DNA of 64,000 bases, from NCBI GenBank assembly GCA_038883775.1, contig JAVZLM010000005.1, forward strand, positions 32,001 through 96,000, given 5' to 3'. This document shows positions 29,296 through 45,660 of this stretch, in pieces. A model generated the notes under the pieces. It saw nothing but the letters and a program-made list of their open reading frames with translations. It made no database searches and was not told the origin of the DNA. Position numbers and translations under genes: made by a program. This stretch comes from Candidatus Bathyarchaeia archaeon. Lineage in GTDB: Archaea; Thermoproteota; Bathyarchaeia; Bathyarchaeales; Bathycorpusculaceae. Within the stretch, counting starts at the first letter, position 1. Each line of letters begins with the position of its first letter.

Positions 29296-29853
29296 TTACA
29301 GAATTTCTCCTGCTGTTTTTCTGTAAATTTCGAAGTCGCGACTTGAAAACAACACGAACACAACTTTGTCGAGGTTATCCTCCTTTTCCAAAAACTCCTT
29401 AACCGTTGATAGGGCTATTTTGCTCGCTTCTTCGATAGGATAACCATAGGTGCCCGTGCTTATGGCTGGAAACGCAATAGTTTTTAGTCCTTTAGAAACA
29501 GCTAATTTTAGCGAGTTGTGGTAAGCTTCAGCTAAAAGTTGCGGCTCACCACTTGAGCCGCCACGCCATATGGGTCCAACAGTGTGGATAACGTATTTAG
29601 CCTTTAAGTTCCCGCCAGAAGTGATGACAGCCTTTCCCGTTGGTAATCCGTTTGGATATTCTGTGGCTCTTATGCGTTTGCATTCCTCAAGGATTTTTGG
29701 TCCGCCCTTGCGGTGGATTGCTCCGTCCACGCCTCCGCCTCCCATAAGCGATGGATTAGCAGCGTTCACTATTGCATCAGTGTCCATTTCAGTTATGTCG
29801 CCTTGAACTAGGAGGATTTTTGCCTTGCCAACCCTAAATTCTTCACTCGGCAT
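29296..29853 (-). CDS. Macro-domain O-acetyl-ADP-ribose deacetylase
   Basis: GDIT, NAAN..GGGGVDGAIH, HTVGP and AISTGTYGYP. Confidence 0.93.
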   Translation of the reverse strand: MPSEEFRVGKAKILLVQGDITEMDTDAIVNAANPSLMGGGGVDGAIHRKGGPKILEECKRIRATEYPNGLPTGKAVITSGGNLKAKYVIHTVGPIWRGGSSGEPQLLAEAYHNSLKLAVSKGLKTIAFPAISTGTYGYPIEEASKIALSTVKEFLEKEDNLDKVVFVLFSSRDFEIYRKTAGEIL

Positions 29854-29989
29854 TAGAGTCCCCCTCAACAATTTATTCTGTAACCATTCTAAATTCTTAA
29901 ATGTTAAATCTTTCTCGCCCTTAAACACTTACACACATAAAATTAGGGCTTAAGCTTATTTTCTTGAAAAATAACTAATCTTCAGCAAG

Positions 29990-31366
29990 GTGAAAATCAT
30001 GGATTTCAGCAAATTAGAAAATTTCGTTTTTGAGAAAATGTCTAAAACCCATTTGCCAGGACTAAGCATAGCCATCGTTAAAGACGGCGAAGTGATTTAT
30101 AGTAGAGGCTTCTGTTTTAGGGACCTGGAGTATGGCTTAAGGGCAACTCCAAACACACTTTATGGAATAGGGTCCATAACCAAATCGTTCACCGCCCTTT
30201 CCATAATGCAACTTGCCGAAAAAGGAAAATTAAGCTTGGAGGATTCTGTTAGCAAATATGTTCCATTAGAGCTAAAATCCATGGAGGAACCAATAAAAAT
30301 ATGGCACCTGCTCAGCCACAGTTCTGGTTTGCCAGCCTTGGCTTATGCAGAAGCTCTTATTCGATATTTGACGGGGGCTGGTGAAAAATGGATTCCCATA
30401 GCAAGCTGCGAGGATATCCTAACTTTTATTCGTGAAGCAGACCAGTGGGCTTTGGCTAAGCCTGGAGAAAGATGGTTCTACTTAAACGAGGGCTACGTGA
30501 TTCTCGGCTACATCATAGAGAAGCTTTCTAACATGCGTTATGAAGAATACGTGAAAAAGAATATTCTTGAACCTTTGCATATGAGCAGAAGCTTCTTTAA
30601 AAAAGAAGATGTGGAATCAGATTTGGATGCAGCCACACCATACATAATCACCAGAGATGGAGAATGCAAAAAATCCGTCTATCCTTATGGAATTTCTGCC
30701 GACGGTGGGCTGATAAGTAATGTCTTAGACTTAGCCCGATACATTATCATGTTTCTTAATCGAGGAACATACGATGGTAACACCTTGGCGTCTCCCAATT
30801 CTATAGAGGAGATGGAAAAGCCAAGAATAAAATTGCCGCTTCAAATTTTCAGCGGAGAATCTTATGGATATGGCTTAAGCATAACTCCCAACTTCTATGG
30901 CAATAAATTAGTAGGTCATGGTGGCTCTGTGCTTGTTTACACTGCCTACATGGGATACATACCAGATAAAAAAGTGGGCATTGCGTTAATGGCTAATGGA
31001 AGTGGTTATCCTCTCTCCCAAATTGGCTTGTATGGACTTGCATTGATGCTGAATGAAAATCCGGAAAACCTTCCATTCATAAAAATTGAAAGAGTCTATG
31101 ATGCGCTTACAGGACTTTACGAAACTTATAAGGGAACAATGAAAGCACAAATTGTCAGCAAAGGCGGCATCCTCCAACTTGAGATTAAGGACAGATATAC
31201 GGATATGATTATACCCTTAATTCCAGAAGACATAGAGGGCACTGTGAAGAAATTTTATGCCCTTCAGTCAGGTGGGAAGCTTCCAGTTGAGTTTATGGTT
31301 GTTGGGGAAAGGGTAGACTTGATTTATGAACGGTATAGACTTAGGAAAGTCGGCAATTTAGCGTAA
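29990..31366 (+). CDS. Serine hydrolase of the beta-lactamase/PBP family (Pab87-like peptidase)
   Basis: SITK, LLSHSSG, YLN and GHGG; extra C-terminal domain. Confidence 0.88.
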   Translation: MKIMDFSKLENFVFEKMSKTHLPGLSIAIVKDGEVIYSRGFCFRDLEYGLRATPNTLYGIGSITKSFTALSIMQLAEKGKLSLEDSVSKYVPLELKSMEEPIKIWHLLSHSSGLPALAYAEALIRYLTGAGEKWIPIASCEDILTFIREADQWALAKPGERWFYLNEGYVILGYIIEKLSNMRYEEYVKKNILEPLHMSRSFFKKEDVESDLDAATPYIITRDGECKKSVYPYGISADGGLISNVLDLARYIIMFLNRGTYDGNTLASPNSIEEMEKPRIKLPLQIFSGESYGYGLSITPNFYGNKLVGHGGSVLVYTAYMGYIPDKKVGIALMANGSGYPLSQIGLYGLALMLNENPENLPFIKIERVYDALTGLYETYKGTMKAQIVSKGGILQLEIKDRYTDMIIPLIPEDIEGTVKKFYALQSGGKLPVEFMVVGERVDLIYERYRLRKVGNLA

Positions 31367-31984
31367 CGCTGAAATAATGAACCATACTCCAAAACCTGTT
31401 AAAACGAGAAAACAAAAACCAAAAACAATTTCATGCACTCTTTCAGTCCAAAAACGTCTCGATTTAAAAACTGTCAAAGAAACGAAAATGTTCCAGACTA
31501 GGTCGCAAGACCAATGGATTACGGCAAAAATTAAAAAGCCCACAAACCCAAAAAGGGCAGCATTCATAACTAAGAAGAGTCCAATAGTAGCCCACCAAAA
31601 AAGGAAATAGGGATTACTAGCTGTAGCAAGAATCCCAGAAACAAGGGAACCATATTTGAAATAGGAAGACTCCTCTTCCATTTCCTTTCGAGCTTTAAGC
31701 ATTTTCAACCCCAAATAAACCATCAATGCTCCACCCACAAGACCTATAATTTTCTGTGTAAGCGGGGAAGCAAAAACCCATGCAAAACCAAGGTAAATGA
31801 GAAACATTATGGGGAACTCCACAACCCCATGACCAATGGATATTAGGATTCCAGCATTCTTTTCTCTGCTAGCCCTTGCAACAGTTACAGCAAACAAGGG
31901 GCCAGGCGACATAACTCCAGATAAGGAGACTAAAATTACTGAAATTAGAAAAAGGTGGAAATCCATAATCATAGGGGGTTCCAT
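31358..31984 (-). CDS. LysE family exporter
   Basis: SPGP, GHG..E and NPY..WW. Confidence 0.88.
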   Translation of the reverse strand: MEPPMIMDFHLFLISVILVSLSGVMSPGPLFAVTVARASREKNAGILISIGHGVVEFPIMFLIYLGFAWVFASPLTQKIIGLVGGALMVYLGLKMLKARKEMEEESSYFKYGSLVSGILATASNPYFLFWWATIGLFLVMNAALFGFVGFLIFAVIHWSCDLVWNIFVSLTVFKSRRFWTERVHEIVFGFCFLVLTGFGVWFIISALR

Positions 31985-32015
31985 AAAACTTCACCGAAAC
32001 CCTTTACGCCTTCAC

Positions 32016-33173
32016 TTACCTTTTTAGTGAAAGGAGTTTATCTTCCGCTGCTGCTAATCCAGCTCCAAGTTTGAAATTGTATCCTAAACTTTTCAAAGTT
32101 GATTCAATAGCCGCTATTGTAGACATTATATCGTTTTGACTAACGTTTCCCATATGTCCCACTCGGAAGCCCTTCCCCTTTAATGGTCCAAGAGTGGAGG
32201 CAACAACAATTCCACACTTTTTCATTTCGCTTCTGAACTTTGCATCATCAATGTTTTCTGGATAATACACGGCAGTAACAGTGTCAGCTGCATGTTCTCT
32301 ATCTGCCACCAGCTTAAGGTTTAAGGTGTTCATTGCAGCCCTAAAAGCCTCAGCCAAAACATGATGTCTTCTAAATCGCTCACTTAACCCTTCCTCAAGC
32401 ACAATTTTCAAAGCTTCAGAAAGGGCATAAATCATGTTAACTGGCGGAGTTGCAAAGTATTGCGATGGGTCTCGCATAACTGGAAGCCAATTTAGCAAAT
32501 TTCCATACCAAAAACTTGGGGGATTTTTTCGCTTTTCAAGATAGTCTAAAACTTTGTCGCTGATTGAAAGTAGGGCTAAACCAGGCGGAACGCCCAGGCA
32601 TTTTTGTGAACCGGAAACGCAAATGTCTATGTTCCACTCGTCAACTCGAACTTCCATTCCACCAAGTGAACAGACGGTATCTACAATGTAGAAGGCATCA
32701 CTGTTTTCCCTAACAATTTCGCCTATCTCCTTAATTGGGTTCGCAACACCAGTGGACGTTTCAACATGGGTAACAGTAACCGCCTTATAAGAATCCTCTT
32801 TTAAGGCATTCCTAATCATTTCCGGCTTTACTGCTTTACCCCACGGCACTTCCAAAACTTTTGCAGTAGCTCCATAAGCCTTTGATATTTTAACGAAATA
32901 ATCGCCAAAATAGCCAGCAACCAAATTTAAAATTTTGTCTCCGGGCTCTACGAGGTTGGCAATAGCCATTTCTAGGGCTAGGGTTCCAGAACCAGCTATT
33001 ACAAAAACATCATTTTCCGTCATGAAAACCCTTTTTAAGTTGTTAAGGGTTTCTTTGAAGATTTCAACAAATTCTGGACTTGTGTGGGATAGAGGTGGCT
33101 TGCTTAGAGCTCTTAAAACTTTTGGGTCAACATTTGTTGGACCTGGAATCATGAGAAGCTCTCTTTCACCCAT
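32016..33173 (-). CDS. Class V PLP aminotransferase (alanine-glyoxylate/serine-pyruvate type)
   Basis: MIPGPT, HVETSTG, GSQK and FRVGHMG. Confidence 0.92.
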   Translation of the reverse strand: MGERELLMIPGPTNVDPKVLRALSKPPLSHTSPEFVEIFKETLNNLKRVFMTENDVFVIAGSGTLALEMAIANLVEPGDKILNLVAGYFGDYFVKISKAYGATAKVLEVPWGKAVKPEMIRNALKEDSYKAVTVTHVETSTGVANPIKEIGEIVRENSDAFYIVDTVCSLGGMEVRVDEWNIDICVSGSQKCLGVPPGLALLSISDKVLDYLEKRKNPPSFWYGNLLNWLPVMRDPSQYFATPPVNMIYALSEALKIVLEEGLSERFRRHHVLAEAFRAAMNTLNLKLVADREHAADTVTAVYYPENIDDAKFRSEMKKCGIVVASTLGPLKGKGFRVGHMGNVSQNDIMSTIAAIESTLKSLGYNFKLGAGLAAAEDKLLSLKR

Positions 33174-33246
33174 TTAGGTTAGCCTCCTTATGGCGACCAA
33201 TACAGCTATATTTATGTTTACTTTTAAATTGTGCGGAAGGATTTTC

Positions 33247-33516
33247 TTGTCTGCTAAGGCTGAAGGTTTAGGATTTTGGCGGAAAATCAAAGACTTTTTT
33301 ATCGGAGCAACTGTTTATAGCGCTATTAAGGAACTTGAAGAAAGGAGACTGCTTGTCGAGTATGGGTTAATGCTGGCAGTGATTGGAGACATGCTGGGGT
33401 ATCCTGTTCCTTCTTATTATAAGCTTAGATTGCTTCCTTTTTGGTTGCCAAGGATAGAAGCGTGGAAAAGTTTCTTGCTTAAAGAGAAGGATATAACGGA
33501 GAAGTTGAAGGGATAA
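33247..33516 (+). CDS. Small CstA/ArsA-associated protein, paralogue 1
   Basis: ML...GDMLG.P..YY.LRLLP.W...I..WK, shared with the next gene. Confidence 0.75.
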   Translation: MSAKAEGLGFWRKIKDFFIGATVYSAIKELEERRLLVEYGLMLAVIGDMLGYPVPSYYKLRLLPFWLPRIEAWKSFLLKEKDITEKLKG

Positions 33517-33575
33517 ATAAGAATAACATTTTTATCTTGAGAGTATTTCCTTATTGTTTTGTGAGTGAAAAACCA

Positions 33576-33863
33576 ATGGCGAAAAAAGAAAAGAACGCGG
33601 AAAAAAGGGAAAGCGAGATTAAAAAGGCAGCAAAGGGCTTAGTTTATGGAATGGCTATGCATGGTATGGTGAGTTATGCCCTAAAAACAAGGATGCACTT
33701 GGAAAATCTTTTTATGCTCATTACAATGGGAGACATGCTAGGCGTTCCAGTATTGCCACCATACTACTGCTTAAGGCTTTTGCCATACTGCGTTCCCCAC
33801 ATTAAAACTTGGAAGAGAACATTGCTGAGGGAACGCGACGTCACTGACTCGATTTTTGCCTAA
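33576..33863 (+). CDS. Small CstA/ArsA-associated protein, paralogue 2
   Basis: ENLFMLITMGDMLGVPVLPPYYCLRLLPY. Confidence 0.8.
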   Translation: MAKKEKNAEKRESEIKKAAKGLVYGMAMHGMVSYALKTRMHLENLFMLITMGDMLGVPVLPPYYCLRLLPYCVPHIKTWKRTLLRERDVTDSIFA

Positions 33864-33879
33864 TGGAGGCTGAACAAAT

Positions 33880-34872
33880 TTGTCAATAACTATGTCGATG
33901 GAAGAATATTTAAAAACTCATCCAAACGTGAAATACATACTCTTCGGCGGTAAGGGAGGACTCGGAAAAACAACGTTGTCTGCTGCAACTGCTTATTGGC
34001 TTTCTAAACATGGGAAAAGGGTTGTTGTATTTTCAACAGATCCCCAAGCAAGTCTCACCGATATTTTTGAGAGGAACATTTTCGGCAAGGGAGAGGTTGA
34101 AATAGCCCCTAACCTTTTTGCGTTGGAAATTGATGCTGATAAACGCATAGCGGACTATCAGCAGGAAATTCGAAACAAGATAATGGAAATGTATGGGGAA
34201 GTTCCAAAAGAAGTGGAAGATTATATTCAATCTTCTGCAGCGGAGCCCGCCATGGCTGAATCAGCAACTTTTGACGCCATGGTTGAGTTGATGACAAGCG
34301 GCACATATGATTACTACATTTTTGATATGATGCCACATGGACATGCTATTCGTTTTCTCGGCATGTCAGAAATATTAGACGCTTGGGTTAACAAAATTGT
34401 TGAGACCAGAAAAAAAGCAGCAGAGTATGGTGATGTAGCTTCTGTTATGAGCGGAAAGGGCGGATTAGCTCAAGAAGATAAGATTTTGGAGGAGTTGGAT
34501 TTCATAAGAACCCGATTAGGATTTGTCAGTAACATGATGAGGGATGAGGAGCACACAGCCTTCTTTTATGTTCTTATACCAGAGCTTATGCCAATTCTAG
34601 ACACCAAAAAAGCCCTAGAGATGTTTAGAGCCTTCAACATTCCATTAAGCGGCGTTATAGTGAATCAAGTTTATCCTACGGATTTGTTAAAGCAAAAGAA
34701 TGTTCCTTCATTCTTAAAAAATAAGATATCAATGCAGCAAGAACACATGAAAACGATTCAAAGAGAGTTTGGACCATTAATTCGTGGAATTGTGCCAATG
34801 TTTGATAGAGAACCAAAGGGGCTTAAAATGATTCCTGAAGTTGCTAAGGTACTATTTAAGGAGGGACGCTAG
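33880..34872 (+). CDS. ArsA/Get3-family ATPase 1
   Basis: GGKGGLGKTT, STDP and DMMPHGH; no Cys. Confidence 0.92.
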   Translation: MSITMSMEEYLKTHPNVKYILFGGKGGLGKTTLSAATAYWLSKHGKRVVVFSTDPQASLTDIFERNIFGKGEVEIAPNLFALEIDADKRIADYQQEIRNKIMEMYGEVPKEVEDYIQSSAAEPAMAESATFDAMVELMTSGTYDYYIFDMMPHGHAIRFLGMSEILDAWVNKIVETRKKAAEYGDVASVMSGKGGLAQEDKILEELDFIRTRLGFVSNMMRDEEHTAFFYVLIPELMPILDTKKALEMFRAFNIPLSGVIVNQVYPTDLLKQKNVPSFLKNKISMQQEHMKTIQREFGPLIRGIVPMFDREPKGLKMIPEVAKVLFKEGR

Positions 34873-34874
34873 TT

Positions 34875-35879
34875 ATGAGTCAAACTCAAACCTTTGGAGA
34901 CTTCATATCCTCAAATCCTCAATTGAAATACATGTTTTTTGGAGGGAAGGGTGGGGTAGGTAAGACCGTAGTTGCTGCTGGCGCTGCCTATTATTTGGCT
35001 GAAAAGTTGGGCAGAAAAACGTTAATTTCATCCACTAATCCTGTTCATAGTTTGTCAAGCGCTTTTGGACAAGACATTTGGGGCAAAGGCATCCGAAAAA
35101 TTGAGGGGGCAAAAAATCTTTACGCTATTGAGATTGATGTAACAGACACGATTAAGAGGTATAAAGAGGAAATACGTGAAAAAATTCTCACGTTTTTGAA
35201 GTATGCAGATATACCATTGGACCCTGAACCTTTTGTGGATATTGCTACCACGAATCCAGCTTTTGAAGAATCTGCCATGTTTGATGACATGATTGATTTG
35301 ATATTGAAGGGCGAATTTGACGCTTACATTTTTGACACTGCACCAGTTGCCCACACCTATCGCCTTTTGGGAATGTCTAAAGTTTATGATCTTTGGCTGC
35401 ATAAAATGGTTGAAAGCCGAAAGGAAGCCCTTTCCCTACGGGTTAAGTTGTCTTTTAGAAAAGAAAAGATTATGGAGGAAATAAAGCGAGATCCCATGCT
35501 TGCCAGTCTCTTAGCCACCAGGGAAAAGACTGAGAAGGGACGAAAGCTTTTGACGGATAAGGAGAAAACAGCATTCTTCTTTGTTACGTTACCGCTTGCT
35601 CTTCCTATAGCGGTTATTGAGCGTTTCATTGGTTGGGTTAAAGCCTTCGATATACCAACTGGCGGCGTTATAGTGAATGAGGTTTTGCCAAAGGAAGAGT
35701 TTGACTTGAAAAATGCTACATCCTACATAGTTAACAAGATTCAGGAGCAAGAAGGCTACTTGAAAATGATTCACAGCAAGTTTCCAGGAATGGTTCGCGG
35801 TTATGTTCCGTTGTTTGAAAAAGAAGTCGCTGGTTTAGAAATGATTGCCCGTGTGGCAGACGCCTTAGGGAAAAAATAA
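34875..35879 (+). CDS. ArsA/Get3-family ATPase 2 (switch-I Asp replaced by Asn)
   Basis: GGKGGVGKT, STNPVHS and DTAPVAH; no Cys. Confidence 0.92.
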   Translation: MSQTQTFGDFISSNPQLKYMFFGGKGGVGKTVVAAGAAYYLAEKLGRKTLISSTNPVHSLSSAFGQDIWGKGIRKIEGAKNLYAIEIDVTDTIKRYKEEIREKILTFLKYADIPLDPEPFVDIATTNPAFEESAMFDDMIDLILKGEFDAYIFDTAPVAHTYRLLGMSKVYDLWLHKMVESRKEALSLRVKLSFRKEKIMEEIKRDPMLASLLATREKTEKGRKLLTDKEKTAFFFVTLPLALPIAVIERFIGWVKAFDIPTGGVIVNEVLPKEEFDLKNATSYIVNKIQEQEGYLKMIHSKFPGMVRGYVPLFEKEVAGLEMIARVADALGKK

Positions 35880-35889
35880 AAGGGGAAAA

Positions 35890-37587
35890 TTAAGTTTTAG
35901 CAGTTTCTTCCTTTGGCTTTGCCCTTAACCGCTGGAAAGCTTTTGCTCCCTCATAACACATGAAAAGACCAAGAATTAACAAGAAGATATTTACAATAGC
36001 TGCAATTAAGGCTCCGATTTTCGAAGGATCTGCAATGTATCCAGTAATTCCACTGTATGTAAGATACGCCAACGCTGACAAGGTAGTTGCTAACATGAAA
36101 AGCATAGGAATCACGGTATAGATTGTGGGACGTTTTTCTTTGGTAAGCCATAGGGACACTATCATCAATGCCAATCCAGCCATGAGTTGATTAGCTCCGC
36201 CGAAAGTGCCCCAAATATAGCTGAATACAGCACCAACGTGTGGACTTGTTATTAAATAGACTATTATGCATACTAAGATGGCACTGAAGTACATATTCTT
36301 GAATATTCCGCCAAATCTGGGCCCACCTAAATCTGACAGAACCAAGCGGGTAATCCTGAGTCCTATATGCATTATTGTTATCGCTAATATAATTAGCATT
36401 ACAGACGTCAATGCATTTCCAACAGTTTCTGAAATTCCTATATAACCTAATAGTTGGGAACCGCCTTTTACAAATACGCTTCCTGCAGCAGTTGTTTCTA
36501 CCAAGCTTGGAGAAAGAATTGCGCATGTAACCAAAGCCACAGTTGCCAGTATTCCCTCAGCCAACATTGCGCCACCACCTATGAAATGAGCATCAGGTTC
36601 TGTATCCAACTGTTTTGAAGTAATGGAAGAGCCTATTAAGCTGTGCCATCCAGATATTGCTCCACATGCGATGGTTACAAACATCATCGGCCATAACGGA
36701 CCAATTGCTGCTGAGTTAACCCATTTTCCCGTAGTCCAAAAGGTTGTGGTCGCTGTTTGCGAAAAATTCGGAGCGCCAATGATAGCGCCAATAATTATGC
36801 CTATAACGCCTGAATATACAAGATAGAAGGAAAGATAGTTAATGGGTTGTATGAAAACCCAAATCGGCAGCACAGCTCCAAGGAAACAGAAGAGCAGAGT
36901 TATGAACATCCAAAAATCTAAAGCGTTTGGAAATGGACCTGTCGCTGGAAGAGGGACCCTAAAAGGTTGGGCTATACCAGCCCAGATTCCTAGAAACATT
37001 ACTATTACGGCGATGATCGTGGTGTAAACTATGTTAACTTTAAGCTTATATGTCATAAAACCTGCTAGCACACCTATAAGTGTTACAATAAGCACAGGTA
37101 TTGGACTTACGGGATAGCTTCTAAATAATCCTGCAACAACGTTGGTGAACGATGAAAGAATCAAAATGATATACCAGAGAATATACCATAACAATATTGT
37201 CCGAGCCCTTGGCGAAACTAACTCATAAGTTATAGGTCCAAAAGAAGCGCCTTCCGATCTTGCTGATACCATTAAGCTTCCATAGTCATGTATCCAGCCG
37301 ATGAATATTGTTCCAAAGAGAATCCACAAAAGGGCGGGAAGCCATCCCCATTGAACGCCAATAATTGGGCCAAGAACAGGTCCCAAGGCTGCTATGCTTT
37401 TCCATTGGAAGCCGAATAGGACGTATTTGTTTGTTGGAAAGAATTCAACGCCATCCATGTATGTGTGTGCGGGCGTTTCTCGTTTAGGGTCTGACATTAT
37501 GACGTTTCTGTCAAACCATTTGACATAGCCCCAATAGGCAATTGCGTAAAGGATTATACCCAATAGAATGACAATTACTGAGAGCAT
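35890..37587 (-). CDS. cstA: Carbon starvation protein CstA family transporter
   Basis: TPAH..DGV, GPVLGP, WGWLP, TIACGAISGWH and FGGANQL; SD GGAGG. Confidence 0.93.
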   Translation of the reverse strand: MLSVIVILLGIILYAIAYWGYVKWFDRNVIMSDPKRETPAHTYMDGVEFFPTNKYVLFGFQWKSIAALGPVLGPIIGVQWGWLPALLWILFGTIFIGWIHDYGSLMVSARSEGASFGPITYELVSPRARTILLWYILWYIILILSSFTNVVAGLFRSYPVSPIPVLIVTLIGVLAGFMTYKLKVNIVYTTIIAVIVMFLGIWAGIAQPFRVPLPATGPFPNALDFWMFITLLFCFLGAVLPIWVFIQPINYLSFYLVYSGVIGIIIGAIIGAPNFSQTATTTFWTTGKWVNSAAIGPLWPMMFVTIACGAISGWHSLIGSSITSKQLDTEPDAHFIGGGAMLAEGILATVALVTCAILSPSLVETTAAGSVFVKGGSQLLGYIGISETVGNALTSVMLIILAITIMHIGLRITRLVLSDLGGPRFGGIFKNMYFSAILVCIIVYLITSPHVGAVFSYIWGTFGGANQLMAGLALMIVSLWLTKEKRPTIYTVIPMLFMLATTLSALAYLTYSGITGYIADPSKIGALIAAIVNIFLLILGLFMCYEGAKAFQRLRAKPKEETAKT

Positions 37588-37686
37588 TTTTCTCCTCCAA
37601 AAATGTATATTGAGGGTTATCTTAATATAAAACTTATCATACACATCAAAGCAGAATGGCCGCCCGTCAACGAAAGGAGCCTTAAA

Positions 37687-38343
37687 ATGTACGAATTTAC
37701 TGCAATCTTCCTTCTCGCTTTACTTTTTATAATTGTATACTTTATTGGAATGAGACAAAACCGAAAGATTGCAGTCAAATACGCCAGAACAGTAAAGGAA
37801 TATATGTCTCCGAAAAGCGAGTTTGTAGGCTTCCGTCCATACAGCCGAGGAGGATTTAGAGCAGTATGCAAAATGAAAGAAAAGGAGGCTTTCAAACAAA
37901 TTGAAATGGCAGTAAGCCTCGTAGACCGGGAAAACCTAATGCATTACCCATTAACACTACTAACAAAAGACACCGATCGCCTCGCATGTTGGGGGTTCCT
38001 TAAAGACCCATTATCTCTCAGCATGGAAATCCTATCAAAACCAAATGAAAAAATACGTAAAAAAATGGCTACGGAGAAAAACCTTAAAGAGATAACCGTA
38101 AACAATACATTAAATTCCTCTTTTACTATCCTCACATCAGACCAAAAGTCTGCAAAAAGATTCTTGTCCTATACTAAACTCGAAAAATGCCTAATGGAAA
38201 CGAAGGATTTTGTAAAACGTCTTTCTTTAGACAGCAAAGATTCAAGAATATATTTAATAGGCGACTTGCGAGATGAGTCCACAATAAAATCACTTTTTGA
38301 CATTTTGTTGTGTTGTGGTGAACAAAGCAGAAAAATACACTAA
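37687..38343 (+). CDS. Single N-terminal-TM protein, CCDC47/DUF1682-like
   Basis: TM, then G.R.NRKIA, later L.DRENL...D; the family call is by eye only. Confidence 0.55.
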   Translation: MYEFTAIFLLALLFIIVYFIGMRQNRKIAVKYARTVKEYMSPKSEFVGFRPYSRGGFRAVCKMKEKEAFKQIEMAVSLVDRENLMHYPLTLLTKDTDRLACWGFLKDPLSLSMEILSKPNEKIRKKMATEKNLKEITVNNTLNSSFTILTSDQKSAKRFLSYTKLEKCLMETKDFVKRLSLDSKDSRIYLIGDLRDESTIKSLFDILLCCGEQSRKIH

Positions 38344-38864
38344 TTATAGCTTTTAATAAATTGTTTCTGGATTTCAATAACTGCTAAGCTATCTGCAGCT
38401 TTTGCGTAGCTTTCAAGCTTTTCTTTGTTTATTTCGATGAAAGTGTGTCCCCACTTAAATATGGAAAGAAGCCTTTGCGCTTCTTCTTTGAATCCAGCTA
38501 TGTATAGGGCTCCAGCTAAAGCCTCAACAGTGCTAAGTTGGGTTGGCTTGCCAAAGTTGATTGGGTTTCCGGCAACCAAAACTGGTAAGCAGCGAGCGGT
38601 TCCTCTCACGTGTTTTGATAAAACTTTTTGGGCATGTTCCCAACTGCAATCTAAGGCAGCTAATCCAAATTTTTCTATGCGTTGCCTATCCGCTGGAGAA
38701 AAGGCTATTTCCGAAAAGGGGTTAAGCACAACAGCCCTTTTCGGCAAGAACTTTATTTGATTTACCATGCGGATTAGCCCGTGGCGTTTGAGCTTTAGGG
38801 CTGTACACTTTTTAGGGTCGCATTGCCCAGCATGATAAACAACAATTCTAACTCTTTCTTGCAC
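38340..38864 (-). CDS. tsr3: rRNA aminocarboxypropyltransferase Tsr3 (DUF367)
   Basis: CDPKKCT, DCSW, NPINFG, LSTVEA and FKWGHTF. Confidence 0.93.
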   Translation of the reverse strand: MQERVRIVVYHAGQCDPKKCTALKLKRHGLIRMVNQIKFLPKRAVVLNPFSEIAFSPADRQRIEKFGLAALDCSWEHAQKVLSKHVRGTARCLPVLVAGNPINFGKPTQLSTVEALAGALYIAGFKEEAQRLLSIFKWGHTFIEINKEKLESYAKAADSLAVIEIQKQFIKSYN

Positions 38865-40392
38865 TGTTCTTGCGCACCTTCAAGTGGCTCATGGGGTCAT
38901 CTAAAACTTTCGGAATCCACTGCAGCAAATCACTGGAAACCATGTGGCAACCCTTCTCTTCAAAAACAAAGTCTCCAGCGGCACCATTAACAAAGGCTCC
39001 AGCCACAGCAGCCTCAAAAGGATCGCACTGTTGGGCTAAGAGGGCGCCCACAATTCCCGAAAGCACGTCTCCTGTTCCGCCAACGGTCATGCCTGGGTTT
39101 CCAGTAAAGTTGAGTTTGAAGCGTTTTTCGTCGCAGATTATGTCCACTGGACCTTTCAAAAGTATTACAGCGCCCAATTCTGCCGCTGTCTTCTGCACTT
39201 CATAAACCCTTTCCTTCAAACTTTCCGGAAGCCGCCTTCCCGTGAGTGTAACATATTCACCAGCGTGGGGTGTCAAAACTAAAGGCACATTTAACTTTCT
39301 TTTGAATTCTGAAAAAGCTTTAAGCGCATCCGCATCTAAAAGCAAAGGTTTCCCAGCCATTTCCACAGCCTCCACAACAGCCTTTACTGCTTCTCGCGTT
39401 TCCACATGCAACCCAAGACCCGGTCCCAAAACGACTGCGTTTGCTATTTCTATGTAGGTTTTCAACATTGGTATATTGCTTATGTTTAGGTGTTTTCCCT
39501 CAAGCTTTATTGTGATTAAATCTGGTGACATGGAAGAAATGGTATAGGCGGTTTTCTCCGGCGCAGCAATATAAGCTAAATCCACGCCAGTTCGTAGAGC
39601 GGCCAAAGCAACAAAGGCGGGAGCCCCAGAAAAGCTTTCGCTTCCTCCAATTACAAGTAGGCGCCCAAAATCTCCTTTATGGGACTCCGAAGGGCGAGGT
39701 TTAACAACCAGCGAAACGTCTCCTGGTCCTGCAAAGTTTTCAAAATCTTTTGGTAACCCTATGTCTTTTACTTTTAATTCGCCAATATAATCTCTTGCTT
39801 TTTCGAGTCCCTGCTTTGTTTTGTGGAAAGTTATGGTTAGGTCGGCTTTGACGGCTTCGCCTAAAATTTCTCCGGTGTCCGAGTCGATTCCCGTTGGTAC
39901 GTCAACTGCAATCTTGAAGGCGTTCATAGAGTTGATTTTTTGGACAAGCTGCAAAATTGGCGGTCTCAATTTTCCTTTAGTGCCTATCCCAAGTAAGGCA
40001 TCGACCACGATATCTGCTTTTATTTCGGGTATGAGTATGCTATCATAAACTTCGTAGATTGGAATTGTTTCCTTCAAAAATTGTAGGGCTTCCCAGTTTT
40101 TTAATGCCGCCTTGTCTGTTATTTCTTTGGCTTTTCCAGCAAGAATTACCGTGACTTTAAAGCCAAATGAGGAAAGATGCCTAGCGATAACGAAACCGTC
40201 GCCGCCATTCCCGCCTAATCCGCAGAAAACTGCAACACTTTTTTCCGGTGGGAATCGCGAAGCAACCTCCAAAGCCACATTATGCCCAGCATTCTCCATT
40301 AATTGAAGTCTGGAAACACCAAAATATTCGCTGTTTAGCTCTAACGCCCGCATCTCTCGGCTGGTTATGACACTTTCACTTTTTTCCAGCAT
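38848..40392 (-). CDS. nnr: Bifunctional NAD(P)HX epimerase/dehydratase
   Basis: LMENAG, GNGGDG, HKGDFG, TPHAGE and GGTGDVL. Confidence 0.93.
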   Translation of the reverse strand: MLEKSESVITSREMRALELNSEYFGVSRLQLMENAGHNVALEVASRFPPEKSVAVFCGLGGNGGDGFVIARHLSSFGFKVTVILAGKAKEITDKAALKNWEALQFLKETIPIYEVYDSILIPEIKADIVVDALLGIGTKGKLRPPILQLVQKINSMNAFKIAVDVPTGIDSDTGEILGEAVKADLTITFHKTKQGLEKARDYIGELKVKDIGLPKDFENFAGPGDVSLVVKPRPSESHKGDFGRLLVIGGSESFSGAPAFVALAALRTGVDLAYIAAPEKTAYTISSMSPDLITIKLEGKHLNISNIPMLKTYIEIANAVVLGPGLGLHVETREAVKAVVEAVEMAGKPLLLDADALKAFSEFKRKLNVPLVLTPHAGEYVTLTGRRLPESLKERVYEVQKTAAELGAVILLKGPVDIICDEKRFKLNFTGNPGMTVGGTGDVLSGIVGALLAQQCDPFEAAVAGAFVNGAAGDFVFEEKGCHMVSSDLLQWIPKVLDDPMSHLKVRKNSARKS

Positions 40393-40505
40393 ACCAAAAC
40401 CTAATAGTTTAATGCCTAAAATAGAAGATAAGCCTATCCATGCTATTCAAAATTTAGCAAAATATTTTAATGCATAAAGATAAAACATTAAGTGAGGAGA
40501 ATTTC

Positions 40506-40745
40506 ATGCCAACAGCCTTTGTGTTGATAAATACTGAGATAGGCTCAGAAGCAGATGTGCTAAAAGACCTTAAGAAAGTGGAGGGAGTGGACGAAGCCTT
40601 CGCTGTTTATGGCGTATATGACATTGTTGCAAGGGTTAAAGCAGAATCCATGGATAAGCTTAAGGAAATTGTAACCTGGCGAATAAGGAGACTTGATAAG
40701 GTTAGGTCAACTTTAACAATGATTGTTGTGGAAGAGTCGAAATAA
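40506..40745 (+). CDS. Lrp/AsnC ligand-binding (RAM) domain protein
   Basis: AFVLIN, VYGVYD and STLTMIV. Confidence 0.9.
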   Translation: MPTAFVLINTEIGSEADVLKDLKKVEGVDEAFAVYGVYDIVARVKAESMDKLKEIVTWRIRRLDKVRSTLTMIVVEESK

Positions 40746-40808
40746 CAAAACTTCCTCTTTTTTATTTACCTAAGCTTTCCTTTATTCATCAAGAATGGGA
40801 CACCATAA

Positions 40809-42146
40809 ATGACAAAACAAATCATGCACATAGGACTGGACGATACAGACTCCATAAGAAGAGGATGCACAACATACATTGCCGCCCTCTTAGTGGAAAA
40901 ACTGCAAAAATTAAATGCCAACTTCATTGATTACCCAAACCTAATTAGATTAAATCCTAACGTGCCATGGAAAACTAGGGGAAACGGAGCCCTCTGCCTA
41001 AGAATACAATACAATAAAAATGTTGAGGAAAAAATCAAAGAATTAGCCATAAGTATGGTGGAGGAGAATGCGGATTTAGAATTTAAAGGCACAGACCCAG
41101 GCATAGTCTTCTTTAAAGGAAAACACATACCAAATGAGATCAAAAATTTTGCCAAGAACACAATCACTGGAATTGTAAGTCTAAAAGAGGCATTAAAACT
41201 TCTGAAAAAGTTTGGGGCGGAAGCGGTTGGCTTCAAAAAGGGTAGAGGCATAATTGGCAGTTTAGCAGCGGTTGGCGAAACCCTTCACGGAGATCACACC
41301 TACGAGATACTTGCGTATCGTGTCCCAGAAAATTGCGGTTCAAAAAGAAGGGTGGATGAGGCTTCAATTTTTGAAATGGATAAGGCTACAGCGCCCTACA
41401 CGTTCAATAATGTGGACCAAGAAAAGCACAGAGTAATCATTACGCCGAGGGGACCAGACCCGATTCTTTTTGGAATTAGGGGTGAAACTCCAGAAATTGT
41501 AAAGAAGGCATTTGTCATGGTTAAGCCTTTTGAGCCTATAGAACGATGGGTTATATTTCGAACAAATCAAGGAACAGATGCGCATTTAAAAAGGGTTGCA
41601 AAACTGAGCGAAGTTAAGCCTTACCATCCAGTTATAGCTAGAGGAATTGTGGCGGCGAATCCAAAAATGATTCCTCGAAGGCATGTGATTTTCTCAATTG
41701 AAGATGACAGCGCTCAAGTGGACTGTGCAGCCTACGAGCCTACAGGCGTTCTTCGCCGTGCCACAATGAAGTTATTGGTTGGGGATTACGTTGAAGTTTA
41801 TGGTGGGGTAAGGGCGCCATCAAAAAAGAATCCATTAACTATAAACCTTGAAAAGATTCGGCTGTTGAAGTTGGCGCCAAAAATTGTTTACCAAAATCCA
41901 GTGTGCACTAAATGTGGAAAACGATTGAAATCCATAGGAAAGTATAAGGGTTTTAGATGCGAAAATTGCGGTTCTAGATACGTTAACATTGGGAAAGTTA
42001 AGGTTAAAATGAAACGAGAAATAAGAAAAGGACTTTACATAACATCCACCAGGTCTCAAAGACATTTAACAAAGCCTTTTAGGCGTTATGGAATGGAAAA
42101 ACACAAAATAAACGGAAAGCTAATTGATTGTTGGCATTTTCCTTAA
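40809..42146 (+). CDS. tiaS: tRNA(Ile2) agmatinylcytidine synthetase
   Basis: GLDDTDS..GCTT, WKTRGNG, TNQGTD and RHLTKP. Confidence 0.95.
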   Translation: MTKQIMHIGLDDTDSIRRGCTTYIAALLVEKLQKLNANFIDYPNLIRLNPNVPWKTRGNGALCLRIQYNKNVEEKIKELAISMVEENADLEFKGTDPGIVFFKGKHIPNEIKNFAKNTITGIVSLKEALKLLKKFGAEAVGFKKGRGIIGSLAAVGETLHGDHTYEILAYRVPENCGSKRRVDEASIFEMDKATAPYTFNNVDQEKHRVIITPRGPDPILFGIRGETPEIVKKAFVMVKPFEPIERWVIFRTNQGTDAHLKRVAKLSEVKPYHPVIARGIVAANPKMIPRRHVIFSIEDDSAQVDCAAYEPTGVLRRATMKLLVGDYVEVYGGVRAPSKKNPLTINLEKIRLLKLAPKIVYQNPVCTKCGKRLKSIGKYKGFRCENCGSRYVNIGKVKVKMKREIRKGLYITSTRSQRHLTKPFRRYGMEKHKINGKLIDCWHFP

Positions 42147-42154
42147 TTTTTTCT

Positions 42155-42391
42155 TTACTCGTTTACTTTGAAAATTTCGCACAGCATTTGATAAAGCTCA
42201 TCGCCGCCCTCCACTTTCGAAAACAGATCTTTTTCGGCTTTAAGCAATCGTCCCATGGTTTGATAGGTTCTTCTCCATTCCAGTTCCTGCCACATCATGC
42301 GGTAATGTTTCTGTTCAATCCAAGCCCTAAAAATCAAGACAGCAAACATACCCAACGTAACTATAAGATTTAATATGTAAAGGTCCAGCAA
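42155..42391 (-). CDS. Small hypothetical membrane protein
   Basis: One TM; strong SD GGAGGTG. Confidence 0.7.
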   Translation of the reverse strand: MLDLYILNLIVTLGMFAVLIFRAWIEQKHYRMMWQELEWRRTYQTMGRLLKAEKDLFSKVEGGDELYQMLCEIFKVNE

Positions 42392-42472
42392 ACCCTTTTC
42401 ACCTCCTTTCTTTTATTTAGCAAAATACATTTAAATCAAACTTGCGATAGCACTTCAAAAGAGAGATATCCT

Positions 42473-42781
42473 ATGAGCGAAATTATTTCGCCGCTTGCTT
42501 ATCAGTTGGGGTTAGGAGGCATAGGCGGTTTCATAGTTGGATATGCTGTAAAAAAGCTAAGCAAGCTAATAGCCATTTTAATAGGCTTATTTATAATAGC
42601 ACTAATTTATCTAAGCACACAAGGGATATTAAGCATAAATTATGAGAGACTTTTTGATTCATTAAAAAATGCTTTGGGATTGGTGGGTCAAGCAGCAGAA
42701 TGGTTCATTAGCTTAATATCGCTACTTCCCTTCATGGGAAGCTTTGTTGTTGGTTTCCTGCTTGGCTTTAAGCTTGGGTAG
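42473..42781 (+). CDS. FUN14 family membrane protein
   Basis: GFIVGYAVKK and C-terminal GFLLGFKLG. Confidence 0.85.
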   Translation: MSEIISPLAYQLGLGGIGGFIVGYAVKKLSKLIAILIGLFIIALIYLSTQGILSINYERLFDSLKNALGLVGQAAEWFISLISLLPFMGSFVVGFLLGFKLG

Positions 42782-42858
42782 TGAAATAGTTTAAATTTGT
42801 GAAGCTCTTTAATCCATTGGAACTTGAAATTAAAGAATTTATTGGAGTGTCTTAAACG

Positions 42859-45660
42859 TTGGAGAAAAAGTTTCCAGCAGAGGAGTACAGCGTCCCATTC
42901 TTTAAGGAAATGGATTATGTGAGGAAGCTTTGTCCAAAATGTGGAGATTATTTTTGGACGCAAAATCCAGAGCAACAAACTTGCGGAGAAGCAAGAAAGG
43001 AAGGTTGCGCTTTTTACACTTTTATAGAAAACCCGCCCACAAAGAGAAGCTACACTTTTGGCGAGATGCGAGAGGCTTTCTTATCATTTTTTGAAAGGCA
43101 TGGGCATACCCGCATAAAGCCTTATCCCGTTGTAGCCCGATGGAGAGAAGACATTTACCTAACACATGCAAGCATCATCGACTTTCAACCCTACGTAACT
43201 GAGGGAATTGCTCCTCCACCAGCAAACCCCCTTGTGATTGTTCAGCCCTGCATTCGTTTAGTGGATATTGCCAACACTGGTCCAACTTTTGGAAAGTATG
43301 AAACTGTTTTTGAAATGGGGGGGCATCACGCATTTAATTATCCAGACAAGGAGGTTTATTGGAAAGACCAAACCGTAAGGTACCACCATGAGTTTGCTAC
43401 AAAAGAATTGGGCATTAAATCTGAGGAGATTGTTTACAAGGAAGAAGTTTGGTCTGGTGGCGGAAATGCTGGTCCATGTTTAGAAACTATTGTTCGAGGA
43501 CTGGAGCTTGCAACACTTGTTTTTATGCAATACAAAGTTATTAACAACGAATTCATCAAATTGCCCATAAGAACCGTCGACACCGGCTACGGCATTGACC
43601 GTTTTACATGGATCTCTCAAGGTGCGATCAGCGGTTTTCACGCAGTTTATGGAGAATTGCTTGACAAGATTTTTGAAATTGTGGGAATAACCAGCGTTGA
43701 CAAGGATTTGTTGGCGAAGGTGGCAAGAGTTTCCGGTTTGGTCAGTTTGGATAAAACAACTGGCATGTGGGAAGTTAGGAAAAAAGTGGCGGAAATTATT
43801 GGAGTGAAAGTTGAGGAACTAGACGCTTTTCTCTCGCCTATCGAAAATGCTTTCGCCGTGGCTGACCACACGAAATGTTTAAGTTTCATACTTTCCGAGG
43901 GCGTAGTTCCATCAAACATTCAGGAAGGCTATTTGGCGAGACTGCTTTTCCGCAGAATCTACCGACTATTAAAGATGTTGGGTGTTCCGGAAAAATTGCC
44001 AGACATTATAGACATGCAAATTAGTTTCTGGTCTAAGGATTATCCTCACCTTAAGGAGATGCGAGACGAAATAATGGAAATGCTTTCAGTTGAAAACGAA
44101 AAGTTTCAAGAAACAATAAAGAGGGGCGAGGGGCTGGTTAAGCGAATATCCAGCGAATTGAAAACCAGAAAGGCGCATGAAATTCCTGTGGAAACTTTGA
44201 CGGAGCTTTATGATTCTCATGGGCTTCCACCAGAAATTGTTAAGCAGATTGCGGAAGAAGAGGGGTTAAGCGTGAATATTCCAGAAAACTTCTACGCATT
44301 AATCGCAGAAAGACACATGCAAACAACAAAACCAGTAGAAGAAGAAGTTAAACCCGAAGAATGGTTGGAAAAAGAAGTTTCGGAACTCCCTCAAACAATA
44401 CCCCTCTATTATCAGGACCAATACATGAAAGAGTTTGATGCAACAGTCATCAAAGTAATAGATAATGATTATGTGGTTCTTGATGAGACATGCTTTTATC
44501 CAGAAGGCGGAGGACAACCAGCAGACACGGGCTATTTCCTATTCGACGGAAAAAGGGTTGATGTTGTTGACGTTAAAAAAGTCGGCAAAGTAATAGTCCA
44601 CAAAATTAAGGGCGAAGCCATTCCGAAAGAAGGCAGCATTGTTAAAGGTGTTATTGACTGGGAAAAGCGGTACAGTTTAATGAAGGCACATACAGCAACT
44701 CATTTAGTTAATGGCGCTGCAAGGCGTGTTTTGGGACAGCACGTTTGGCAGTTTGGAACACAAAAAGGCATTGAAACCTCAAGGCTGGACATATCCCATT
44801 ATCGCCGATTGACGCCAGAAGAAATTCACAAAATAGAAACTTTGGCAAATCAAGCAATTCTAAAAAACATGCCTGTGGAAACCCTTTGGATGCCAAGAAG
44901 CGAAGCAGAAAACCAATATGGTTTTAGACTCTATCAGGGCGGTGCGGTTCCAGGCAAAGAAATCCGCGTGGTAAAAACTGGAGACTGGGATGTAGAAGCG
45001 TGCGCTGGAACTCACTTGAAAAGCACAGGAGAGATCGGCTTCATAAAAATAATTCACACAGAAAGAATTCAAGATGGCGTTGAAAGACTCGTATATTCAG
45101 TCGGAATTCCCGCCCTAAAAACAGTACAAGAGAAGGAAAGGCTGCTATGGAAATTGTCGGAAATTTTGAACGCTCCAGTAGAAAAACTGGACAAAACAGC
45201 CGAAAAACTCGTGAAAGACTATAAGGAAGTCATAGCAGAAAGAAGAAGGCTGATTAAGGAATTAGCGGAACGGGAAAGCGCAAGTTTGGGAGCAAAACCA
45301 ACCGAAAAAATTAAAGAAATAAGCGGCGTCAAAATAGTAATACGCGATTTTCAAGATTCCATTGATGTTGACCGCATGGTTCAAACAGCCAACGAAACAA
45401 TCAAGAAGGACGATGCAACGGTTACAATATTTTATGGAAATGACGGAAAAAATGCGAGAATTATGGTTATGGTTGGTAAAGCTGCTCTGGAAAAAGGTGT
45501 AAACGCAAACGAAATTGTAAAAGAAGCATCAGCAATAATAGGCGGCGGAGGCGGTGGAAAACCAAACTTCGCCCAAGGCGGAGGAACAAAAATCGAAAAA
45601 CTAAAAGAGGCGGTTAAGAAAGCTGAAGAAATCTTGAAGAAACAATTAAAACCCGAATAG
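42859..45660 (+). CDS. alaS: Alanine--tRNA ligase
   Basis: DTGYG, ADHT, HTATH, CAGTH and GGGGKPNFAQGG. Confidence 0.97.
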   Translation: MEKKFPAEEYSVPFFKEMDYVRKLCPKCGDYFWTQNPEQQTCGEARKEGCAFYTFIENPPTKRSYTFGEMREAFLSFFERHGHTRIKPYPVVARWREDIYLTHASIIDFQPYVTEGIAPPPANPLVIVQPCIRLVDIANTGPTFGKYETVFEMGGHHAFNYPDKEVYWKDQTVRYHHEFATKELGIKSEEIVYKEEVWSGGGNAGPCLETIVRGLELATLVFMQYKVINNEFIKLPIRTVDTGYGIDRFTWISQGAISGFHAVYGELLDKIFEIVGITSVDKDLLAKVARVSGLVSLDKTTGMWEVRKKVAEIIGVKVEELDAFLSPIENAFAVADHTKCLSFILSEGVVPSNIQEGYLARLLFRRIYRLLKMLGVPEKLPDIIDMQISFWSKDYPHLKEMRDEIMEMLSVENEKFQETIKRGEGLVKRISSELKTRKAHEIPVETLTELYDSHGLPPEIVKQIAEEEGLSVNIPENFYALIAERHMQTTKPVEEEVKPEEWLEKEVSELPQTIPLYYQDQYMKEFDATVIKVIDNDYVVLDETCFYPEGGGQPADTGYFLFDGKRVDVVDVKKVGKVIVHKIKGEAIPKEGSIVKGVIDWEKRYSLMKAHTATHLVNGAARRVLGQHVWQFGTQKGIETSRLDISHYRRLTPEEIHKIETLANQAILKNMPVETLWMPRSEAENQYGFRLYQGGAVPGKEIRVVKTGDWDVEACAGTHLKSTGEIGFIKIIHTERIQDGVERLVYSVGIPALKTVQEKERLLWKLSEILNAPVEKLDKTAEKLVKDYKEVIAERRRLIKELAERESASLGAKPTEKIKEISGVKIVIRDFQDSIDVDRMVQTANETIKKDDATVTIFYGNDGKNARIMVMVGKAALEKGVNANEIVKEASAIIGGGGGGKPNFAQGGGTKIEKLKEAVKKAEEILKKQLKPE

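Follow-up and report, generated by a model that had tools for sequence, protein, structure and literature searches.

A conserved gene module that joins the permease CstA to a pair of Get3/ArsA-family ATPases in Bathyarchaeia

Why does an archaeal gene for a permease of the CstA family stand next to genes for two tandem ATPases of the Get3/ArsA family? The question is raised by six genes at positions 33,247 to 38,343 of a 64,000-nucleotide stretch of DNA from Candidatus Bathyarchaeia archaeon (contig JAVZLM010000005.1, positions 32,001 to 96,000 of the forward strand; here called the window). They encode two small paralogous proteins (CstX1 and CstX2), the two ATPases (ATPase1 and ATPase2), CstA, and CstY, a protein with a single transmembrane (TM) helix. 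A preliminary description of this DNA had presented the genes as a candidate uncharacterised system. We find that the locus is almost certainly one instance of a conserved CstA-CstX-(CstY)-ATPase1/ATPase2 module. As a kind, this system is not new: it has been known in print since 2010, by genome comparison only, as a prediction from gene context by Castillo and Saier (PMC2963123). Our tentative answer to the question is that the ATPases may act on CstA itself, as parts of one complex.

A gene cluster shared by archaea and bacteria

The cluster opens with cstX1 (33247..33516, plus strand), which reads as 89 amino acids from a TTG at 33247 in a frame that also opens at an ATG at 33190. It is followed by cstX2 (33576..33863, plus strand; 95 amino acids, with an alternative opening of the frame at 33537), and both genes encode small two-helix proteins. 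The two single-domain ATPases of the Get3/ArsA family come next on the same strand: ATPase1 (33880..34872, plus strand; 330 amino acids) matches PF02374 at 3.1e-71, and ATPase2 (34875..35879, plus strand; 334 amino acids), whose catalytic site is degenerate, matches it at 7.9e-62. They converge on cstA (35890..37587, minus strand), the stop codons of ATPase2 and cstA lying 10 nt apart. The permease is 565 amino acids long from an ATG at 37587 with GGAGG upstream (alternative opening of the frame at 37644). Divergent from it is cstY (37687..38343, plus strand; 218 amino acids), whose product has a TM helix at the N-terminus and, after it, a cytoplasmic alpha/beta domain of the CCDC47/TtfA fold. 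The 99 nt between the two genes (37588..37686), read directly from the sequence, hold ribosome-binding sites for both and A+T-rich, TATA-like stretches. The layout given in the preliminary description, in which two small paralogues and two tandem ATPases converge on cstA and a single-TM gene diverges from it, is thus borne out, with every open reading frame (ORF) present.

The cstA product matches PF02554 (E = 1.8e-118) and is 28% identical to E. coli CstA (E = 2e-61), relative to which it lacks a stretch of about 42 residues, seen as a gap in the BLAST alignment, and about 80 C-terminal residues. A sequence search found no solved structure for CstA or for CstX.

A CstX profile drew matches from at least 603 species-representative genomes. 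We examined the best 78 loci from that search, comparing the six window proteins with all frames by phmmer, and excluded loci with insufficient room from the linkage counts. The archaeal loci belong to Bathyarchaeia, Nitrososphaeria, Thor- and Heimdallarchaeota, Methanoperedens and Hydrothermarchaeales, and the bacterial loci to Chloroflexota, Bacillota, Nitrospirota, Thermodesulfobacteriota, Actinomycetota, Spirochaetota and Pseudomonadota. At least 2.3 kb follows CstX in 61 loci; 59 of these have both ATPases in full length, always in the order ATP1-type, then ATP2-type, and the two exceptions are a locus in which the ATP1 gene is split (L056) and one with a lone CstX (L067). Where the DNA reaches at least 2.5 kb upstream and 4.5 kb downstream, as it does in 42 loci, a cstA gene is always present. 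Neighbourhood co-occurrence had been put forward in the preliminary description as a check on its proposal, and by these counts the genes do co-occur. The arrangement is far beyond chance and recurs in the 78 loci, in archaea and in bacteria.

Spacing is tight in the bacterial loci, where the CstX frame starts no more than a few bases away from the stop of cstA. The ATPase frames there touch or overlap, a pattern that the subunits of a single complex would be expected to show. Window-type CstY (phmmer, E ≤ 1e-5) was found in 19 of 23 archaeal and 0 of 19 bacterial loci with room. When the unassigned neighbouring ORFs were clustered, a divergent CstY-like family emerged in 16 of the 78 loci (14 bacterial loci together with L039 and L040); its kinship with CstY is supported by hhalign over 178 columns (95.6%, E = 1.3e-8).

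Clusters of cstA, cstX, cstY and arsA homologues were described from SEED gene contexts by Castillo and Saier (Int J Microbiol 2010:187373; PMC2963123). In the passages of that paper that concern the clusters, 26 associations of CstA with an ArsA homologue are counted, 24 of them with CstX, a protein of about 90 amino acids that has two paralogues in two genomes. Adjacent ATPase pairs are given there for two organisms and CstY, at about 210 amino acids with one TM segment, for five archaea, and no ars genes are reported in the clusters. These authors put forward the idea that CstA is energised by the ArsA homologue and that CstX may link the two, and argued for an analogy with ArsA-ArsB and for co-evolution of CstA, CstX and the ArsA homologues. 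Our match to their clusters is one of gene content, sizes and order. Like their ArsA clusters 14-15, which are the nearest, the window combines CstA, CstX of about 90 amino acids, single-domain ArsA homologues of about 330 and CstY of about 210, and has no ars genes. A full-text literature search for CstX and CstY returned only the 2010 paper and none later, and found no bench work on the module. What goes beyond the passages concerned is the fixed Asp-to-Asn asymmetry, the two ancient ATPase clades and the CCDC47/TtfA fold of CstY; relative to the literature searched, the natural Asp-to-Asn subunit and the accessory protein of the CCDC47/TtfA fold are new.

The ATPase pair and its small partner proteins

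ATPase1 and ATPase2 are 39% identical (E = 2e-73), and both score above the TIGR00345 cut-off of 135 (230.3 and 215.8 bits, respectively). The catalytic site of ATPase1 is intact, with STDPQ in switch I and DxxPxGH in switch II. The site of ATPase2 is degenerate; its P-loop is intact, and switch I reads STNPVH, with Asn in place of Asp, and switch II DTAPVAH, with the Gly lost. This asymmetry is fixed across the family. In an alignment of 133 sequences, (T/V)DPQASL in switch I and D..P.GH in switch II were found in 70 of 70 ATP1-type proteins, and (T/L)NP(V/I)HSL in 63 of 63 ATP2-type proteins, all of which have lost the switch-II Gly, and often the His too, while keeping an invariant P-loop. 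In an alignment with M. jannaschii Get3 (3ug6; E = 2e-50), the Asn of ATPase2 falls on the Asp of the STDPAHSL motif. We take it to occupy the position of the D57N substitution in yeast Get3, the yeast numbering being carried over by family correspondence. Get3 D57N binds ATP and does not hydrolyse it (PMC12506534). Because the Asp is kept in every ATP1-type sequence and its hydrolysis-dead equivalent is present in every ATP2-type sequence, the two proteins probably form an asymmetric, obligate heterodimer with one working and one ATP-locked site.

A maximum-likelihood tree of 59 ATP1-type and 59 ATP2-type sequences is divided by one branch that separates the types (SH-aLRT 100), and bacterial and archaeal subclades are mirrored on its two sides. 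Judged by this single split with its mirrored subclades, the ATPase duplication is older than the spread of the module, and the two types make up ancient, separate clades. The preliminary description had read the doubling of both the ATPases and the small proteins as a sign of an asymmetric complex. For the ATPases this stands, in the form of the Asp/Asn difference. For CstX it does not, since the copy number per locus runs from one to four, many loci have one only, and two are thus not required. Complex prediction for ATPase1, ATPase2 and CstX2 with two ATP gave 0.57, 0.54 and 0.58, and partner swaps gave 0.00 and 0.00; a control in which ATPase2 was replaced also gave 0.57, and the scores thus speak neither for nor against binding.

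Both proteins resemble Get3/TRC40 (3ug6, 3zq6) in passing the TIGR00345 cut-off, in the deviant Walker A motif GKGGVGKT and in a full-length alignment. ATPase2 aligns with M. jannaschii Get3 through the region after switch II, where a helical insert had been noticed in the preliminary description. They differ from Get3 in several respects. They are two ancient paralogues and a predicted heterodimer; one of them carries Asn for the catalytic switch-I Asp that Get3 has in each subunit of its homodimer; they lack the Zn-binding CxxC motif; and they are tied to a transporter gene. Neither ATPase contains a single Cys, exactly as the preliminary description had it. The missing CxxC does not exclude a Get3-type role, since the motif is not universal in archaeal Get3 and at least one archaeal Get3 homologue without it dimerises and binds tail-anchored proteins, as described in the relevant part of the source (PMC6593721).

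With ArsA the resemblance is shorter, E. coli ArsA aligning over residues 18-175 only. The module shares with ArsA-ArsB an ArsA-family ATPase that is genetically coupled to a secondary-type permease, as well as two non-equivalent nucleotide sites, which ArsA is known to have. It differs in that its subunits are separate rather than fused halves, in that there are no metalloid-binding Cys and no ArsB, Acr3 or ArsD, and in that the permease belongs to another family.

The CstX proteins are the most conserved component of the module. Bacterial copies are 53-64% identical to window CstX2 (alignment A5), compared with 49-53% for ATPase1 and 49-56% for ATPase2 in bacterial loci. CstX1 and CstX2 are 41% identical to each other over 74 residues (E = 9e-19) and have in common the motif GDMLGxPxxPxYYxLRLLP, and a CstX paralogue is found at the same position in related loci. 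Residues invariant in the family include E43, G52, D53, P58, P61-P62, Y63-Y64, W79 and D88. In the AlphaFold2 (AF2) monomer of CstX2, which is of low confidence (pLDDT 63.8), helices 3-54 and 62-94 are joined at a PxLPPYY loop. The 19-residue stretch of highest hydrophobicity has a value of 1.3-1.4 in the window proteins, against a family median of 1.52; a value of 1.6 or more is attained by only 9 of 59 members. On this measure the stretch would be borderline as a TM helix, and it contains invariant acidic residues. The family comprises 430 representatives at E ≤ 1e-3 among 1.84 billion. A precomputed Pfam tag, PF25952, is attached to 234 CstX relatives, and no paper on PF25952 was found in the literature search.

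A link between these small proteins and the bacterial CC-star proteins had been mentioned in the preliminary description, with the remark that the window copies lack a terminal CC. The remark holds well beyond the window, whose CstX proteins end in ...SIFA and ...KLKG: a C-terminal CC was found in 0 of the 149 CstX representatives examined. The link itself survives as weak matches of both proteins to the cory-CC-star family NF041419 (1.2e-7 and 31.7 bits for CstX2, 1.6e-3 and 18.4 bits for CstX1), and at scores so far below the cut-off of 80 it does not extend to membership. CstX is like YbdD (PF04328) and the cory-CC-star proteins in being a small protein encoded beside cstA. E. coli YbdD ends in CC, and CstX differs from both groups in its missing terminal CC, in its sub-threshold NF041419 scores and in having no detectable relation to YbdD, a relationship that we considered and rejected (hhalign probability 0.4%, no Pfam match).

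Protein records of the wider family include a CstX subfamily with a His-rich tail (...HEHHLHG followed by L, V or I) and another that ends in ...DLTDL..EI.. (P0121, P0137, P0168, P0184, P0236). A search for longer family members found no fused forms of CstX; apparent fusions are seen in single records, among them P0121, a tandem CstX-CstX, and P0137, a partial CstA C-terminus running into CstX. To go by the records, the His-rich tails might bind metal, and the tandem and CstA-CstX records might be natural fusions.

CstY and the genomic setting of the module

An AF2 model of CstY, made from 24 archaeal orthologues (pLDDT 93.5, pTM 0.87), has a TM helix with a hydropathy peak of 2.72 that runs into a long helix and then into an alpha/beta domain. 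The top three Foldseek matches of this model are all chains of ribosome-translocon structures: 7tm3_4 (3.4e-10), 9i78_4 (1.2e-8) and 6w6l_7 (1.1e-6). VIA-align superposed 215 of the 218 residues of CstY on residues 136-397 of 7tm3_4, with Z 20.3 and an rmsd of 2.5. It ranked 9i78_4 (Z 17.4), mycobacterial TtfA (6t84; Z 14.1) and 6w6l_7 (Z 13.9) next, and the match after these reached 7.5. Chain 9i78_4 is named CCDC47 by its depositors, and to go by the papers of the entries and the residue ranges, 7tm3_4 and 6w6l_7 should be CCDC47 as well. Papers on translocon structures list CCDC47 as a component in the passages that name the constituents (PMC7505659; PMC9630114).

At the level of sequence, the Pfam family CCDC47 (PF07946) gives window CstY 21.6 bits against a gathering threshold of 27.7, and it matches 9 of the 24 orthologues at E ≤ 0.01, the best at 3.2e-7. 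In a second Pfam scan of 11 proteins (10 of the 24 and the bacterial CstY-like protein of L052), only the protein of L034, from Thorarchaeota, matches, over residues 10-185. Because a CstY profile run against PDB sequences gave only an insignificant CCDC47 match (E = 1.4), the homology of CstY to CCDC47 rests mainly on the fold. In the ESM Atlas the nearest entries are bacterial 'hypothetical' clusters of 211-218 amino acids (0.97), and a eukaryotic CCDC47 cluster stands at rank 30 (0.79), which we regard as a lead only. The label "CCDC47-like" that the preliminary description had attached to this protein is upheld by the fold match and by the recurrent sub-threshold Pfam matches. Our literature search found no relevant statement joining CCDC47 with archaea, TtfA, DUF1682 or CstA.

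CstY shares the succession of TM helix, long helix and alpha/beta domain both with CCDC47, of the PAT complex and multipass translocon (7tm3, 9i78, 6w6l), and with TtfA (6t84), and both of these proteins act alongside multipass membrane proteins. It differs from CCDC47 in that only the stated portion of the 7tm3 chain is covered and the flanking spans are lacking, and we know of no link of CstY to the ribosome or to Asterix. TtfA, for its part, is described as an accessory of the transporter MmpL3, with which it occurs in a complex (PMC6593404).

Whole-genome searches of the host covered 1.69 Mb in 28 contigs, a genome that is 91% complete. The searches found one cstA and one cstY in it, and no ArsA/Get3-family gene besides ATPase1 and ATPase2. 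No match to the ArsB, ArsD or SBF/Acr3 families was found anywhere in it, which extends to the whole assembly the observation in the preliminary description that ars genes are absent. CstX is present in 12 of 61 sampled genomes of the same class, the host genome included, and in 0 of 9 sampled genomes of the same family or order; the module is therefore accessory and patchily distributed. At least two ArsA-family matches (E ≤ 1e-20) occur in 10 of the 12 CstX-positive genomes of this sample, and an adjacent ATPase pair occurs in none of the CstX-negative genomes. An ArsA/Get3-family match at the same threshold is missing from 40 of the 61, many of which are at least 95% complete.

Three observations bear on how the module comes and goes at this site. 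In the hot-spring runs X9 and X10, which are from the same study, one contig each joins position 33173 to position 38351 and skips 5177 nt, exactly the six-gene module. Since the shorter side of this joint measures only 34 nt and the matches are 90-95% alike, it is a weak hint of a related population that is without the entire module here. In a genome of the same family (L092; G038:C14:26400-38000, compared with window 31358-38864), a LysE-type gene directly follows Tsr3, and the aminotransferase and the module, which lie between them in the window, are both missing. This arrangement, together with the nine relatives that have no CstX, agrees with the module having been gained or lost as a whole. 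Another genome of the same family (L090; G008:C66:63000-65752) has, beside Tsr3, a 190-amino-acid protein and a CstY-like gene of 229 amino acids, then transposase-like ORFs and the contig end. No cstA, CstX or ArsA-family match was found in that genome, and the locus could be a module remnant or an assembly break.

The flanks of the module in the window (29296-33173 and 38340-45660) look ordinary for an archaeon. We take them to encode a Tsr3-like protein of ribosome biogenesis, an NAD(P)HX repair-type fusion, a TiaS-like tRNA enzyme, an alanyl-tRNA synthetase, a class-V aminotransferase, a LysE-type exporter, a beta-lactamase-fold protein and a macro-domain protein. These identities were recognised by eye in the translations, and those that were scanned against Pfam are Tsr3, the aminotransferase and LysE only.

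Related loci carry further neighbour families. A protein of about 140 amino acids with a CxxC motif occurs in 21 loci (e.g. L013:2739-3182(-)), a protein of about 200 amino acids in 13, and a TM-plus-TPR protein in 9 loci from Anaerolineae; further example positions of such families are L032:12899-13495(-) and L073:3388-4071(+). Searched against Pfam and NCBIfam, only the TPR protein gave a match, in Pfam. In the protein records of representatives P0134, P0150 and P0189, a CxxC domain is apparently fused N-terminal to CstX. All three families are absent from the window, and the host genome as a whole gave no match to the CxxC protein.

Possible roles of the module

The function to which we lean, while giving it slightly less than an even chance, is that of an ATP-coupled CstA complex, in which an ATPase dimer docked through CstX couples ATP to transport or its gating and CstY is accessory. 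CstA would be the permease; those of its relatives that have been characterised in E. coli are pyruvate/H+ symporters. ATPase1 and ATPase2 would form an obligate heterodimer of the Get3/ArsA type in which ATPase1 hydrolyses ATP and ATPase2 only binds it, and the helix-loop-helix protein CstX would hold the dimer against CstA on the cytoplasmic side. Transport would then be driven or gated as the one active site binds and hydrolyses ATP, in the way that ArsA makes ArsB ATP-coupled. The part of CstY would be that of an accessory subunit, stabilising or assembling CstA as TtfA serves MmpL3. The data themselves show the gene content, the linkage, the two ATPase clades, the asymmetry of their catalytic sites and the fold of CstY; in the scheme built on them we infer the physical contacts, the coupling to transport and the substrate.

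We prefer this complex because the ATPases are almost invariably linked to cstA and cstX, in archaea and bacteria alike, and because the frames in bacterial operons are tightly spaced. A fixed, half-locked dimer also suits a stable motor more than a symmetric capture-and-release chaperone, and ArsA-ArsB provides a precedent for the coupling. A further reason is the fold that CstY shares with TtfA, described as an accessory of MmpL3 (PMC6593404). That the host genome has no other ArsA/Get3-family gene, and one cstA only, counts for the complex as well.

Several facts weigh on the other side. At three loci (L060, L069 and L084), CstX and the ATPases occur with no cstA in the limited DNA around them. 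E. coli CstA and similar relatives work without an ATPase, so that energisation is not demanded by the fold. Among solved structures, both ATPases have their closest relatives in archaeal Get3 proteins (3ug6, 3zq6; E ~1e-50), not in ArsA; the best fold matches of CstY are to CCDC47, a membrane-protein biogenesis factor; and the marginal hydrophobicity of CstX and its poor folding alone would also fit a Get3 client.

The Get3 kinship of the ATPases and the match of CstY to CCDC47 over nearly its whole length speak for the main rival, a dedicated membrane-biogenesis machine. Here a Get3-like heterodimer would pick up the small CstX proteins, or segments of CstA, post-translationally and bring them to the membrane, where CstY would serve as a mini-CCDC47, a receptor or intramembrane-assembly chaperone for the multipass CstA. 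We consider this somewhat unlikely. In its favour is also the reported ability of at least one CxxC-less archaeal Get3 to dimerise and bind tail-anchored proteins (PMC6593721). The hydrophobic segment of CstX, a protein of about 90 residues, ends about 35 residues before the C-terminus and would thus emerge from the ribosome only around termination, and the low confidence of the CstX monomer is as expected if a partner is needed. However, with the fixed Asp-to-Asn change one half of the dimer would stay locked with ATP, whereas Get3 has to open fully before its cargo is released. Glu and Asp are invariant in the hydrophobic helix of CstX, whose hydropathy falls short of the value usual for a TM helix. 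Many modules are without a detectable CstY, given its absence in window form from the bacterial loci and the presence of the divergent form in 16 of 78. CstA homologues elsewhere insert unaided, and to our knowledge a two-subunit ATPase private to one transporter has no precedent.

A broader version of the same idea would make CstY a true prokaryotic homologue of CCDC47, present in Asgard archaea and Bathyarchaeia and divergent in bacteria, and the whole module a post-translational machine for membrane-protein insertion and assembly. A half-locked Get3-like dimer, CstX as client or adaptor and a CCDC47-like chaperone would act together on CstA, in a forerunner of the eukaryotic GET and PAT systems. 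We judge this proposal doubtful, and clearly less probable than a machine dedicated to CstA.

Three further explanations fit the data poorly. The pair could be a stress holdase or homeostasis ATPase merely co-regulated with cstA, like the redox-activated Get3 holdase or mycobacterial BagAB, which we hold to be highly unlikely. Both ATPases do match BagA (NF053622; 55.5 bits for ATPase1, 39.7 for ATPase2) and BagB (NF053621; 35.9 and 33.3 bits), but weakly and far under the respective cut-offs of 400 and 521, and the Get3 redox switch needs cysteines, which both lack. Holdase activity is recorded for Get3 proteins (PMC6593721), and the name "carbon starvation" suggests a stress regulon. Co-regulation alone, however, does not explain a linkage that embraces cstA in 42 of 42 loci and cstX in 59 of 61 across two domains. 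A housekeeping archaeal Get3 for tail-anchored proteins that simply stands beside cstA would agree with the finding that no other ArsA/Get3-family genes were found in the host genome. It is scarcely credible for a pair that is accessory, most of the sampled same-class genomes having no family match at E ≤ 1e-20, and that travels with cstA and with a CstX missing from all nine sampled genomes of the same family or order. ArsA proper, an arsenite/antimonite resistance ATPase, has the Pfam family name "anion-transporting ATPase" in its favour, and we regard it as practically discounted: the proteins are single-domain, they have no Cys and so no metalloid ligands, they score 115.9 (ATPase1) and 97.6 bits (ATPase2) against a TIGR04291 cut-off of 650, and no ArsB, ArsD or Acr3/SBF match was found in the genome.

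The module is widespread, CstX matches extending from Asgard and other archaea into several bacterial phyla. It unites a nutrient permease family, Get3/ArsA ATPases and a protein of the CCDC47/TtfA fold, which are usually studied separately. The natural Asp-to-Asn subunit is a ready mechanistic handle, and among the carriers named in the cluster passages of the 2010 paper are cultivable Thermococcus, Pyrobaculum and Bacillus species (PMC2963123). If the module is a biogenesis device, parts of the eukaryotic machinery for membrane-protein insertion would have prokaryotic roots. If, as we prefer to think, the ATPase pair drives or gates CstA, it would represent a second, arsenic-independent ArsA-type motor on a secondary-type carrier.

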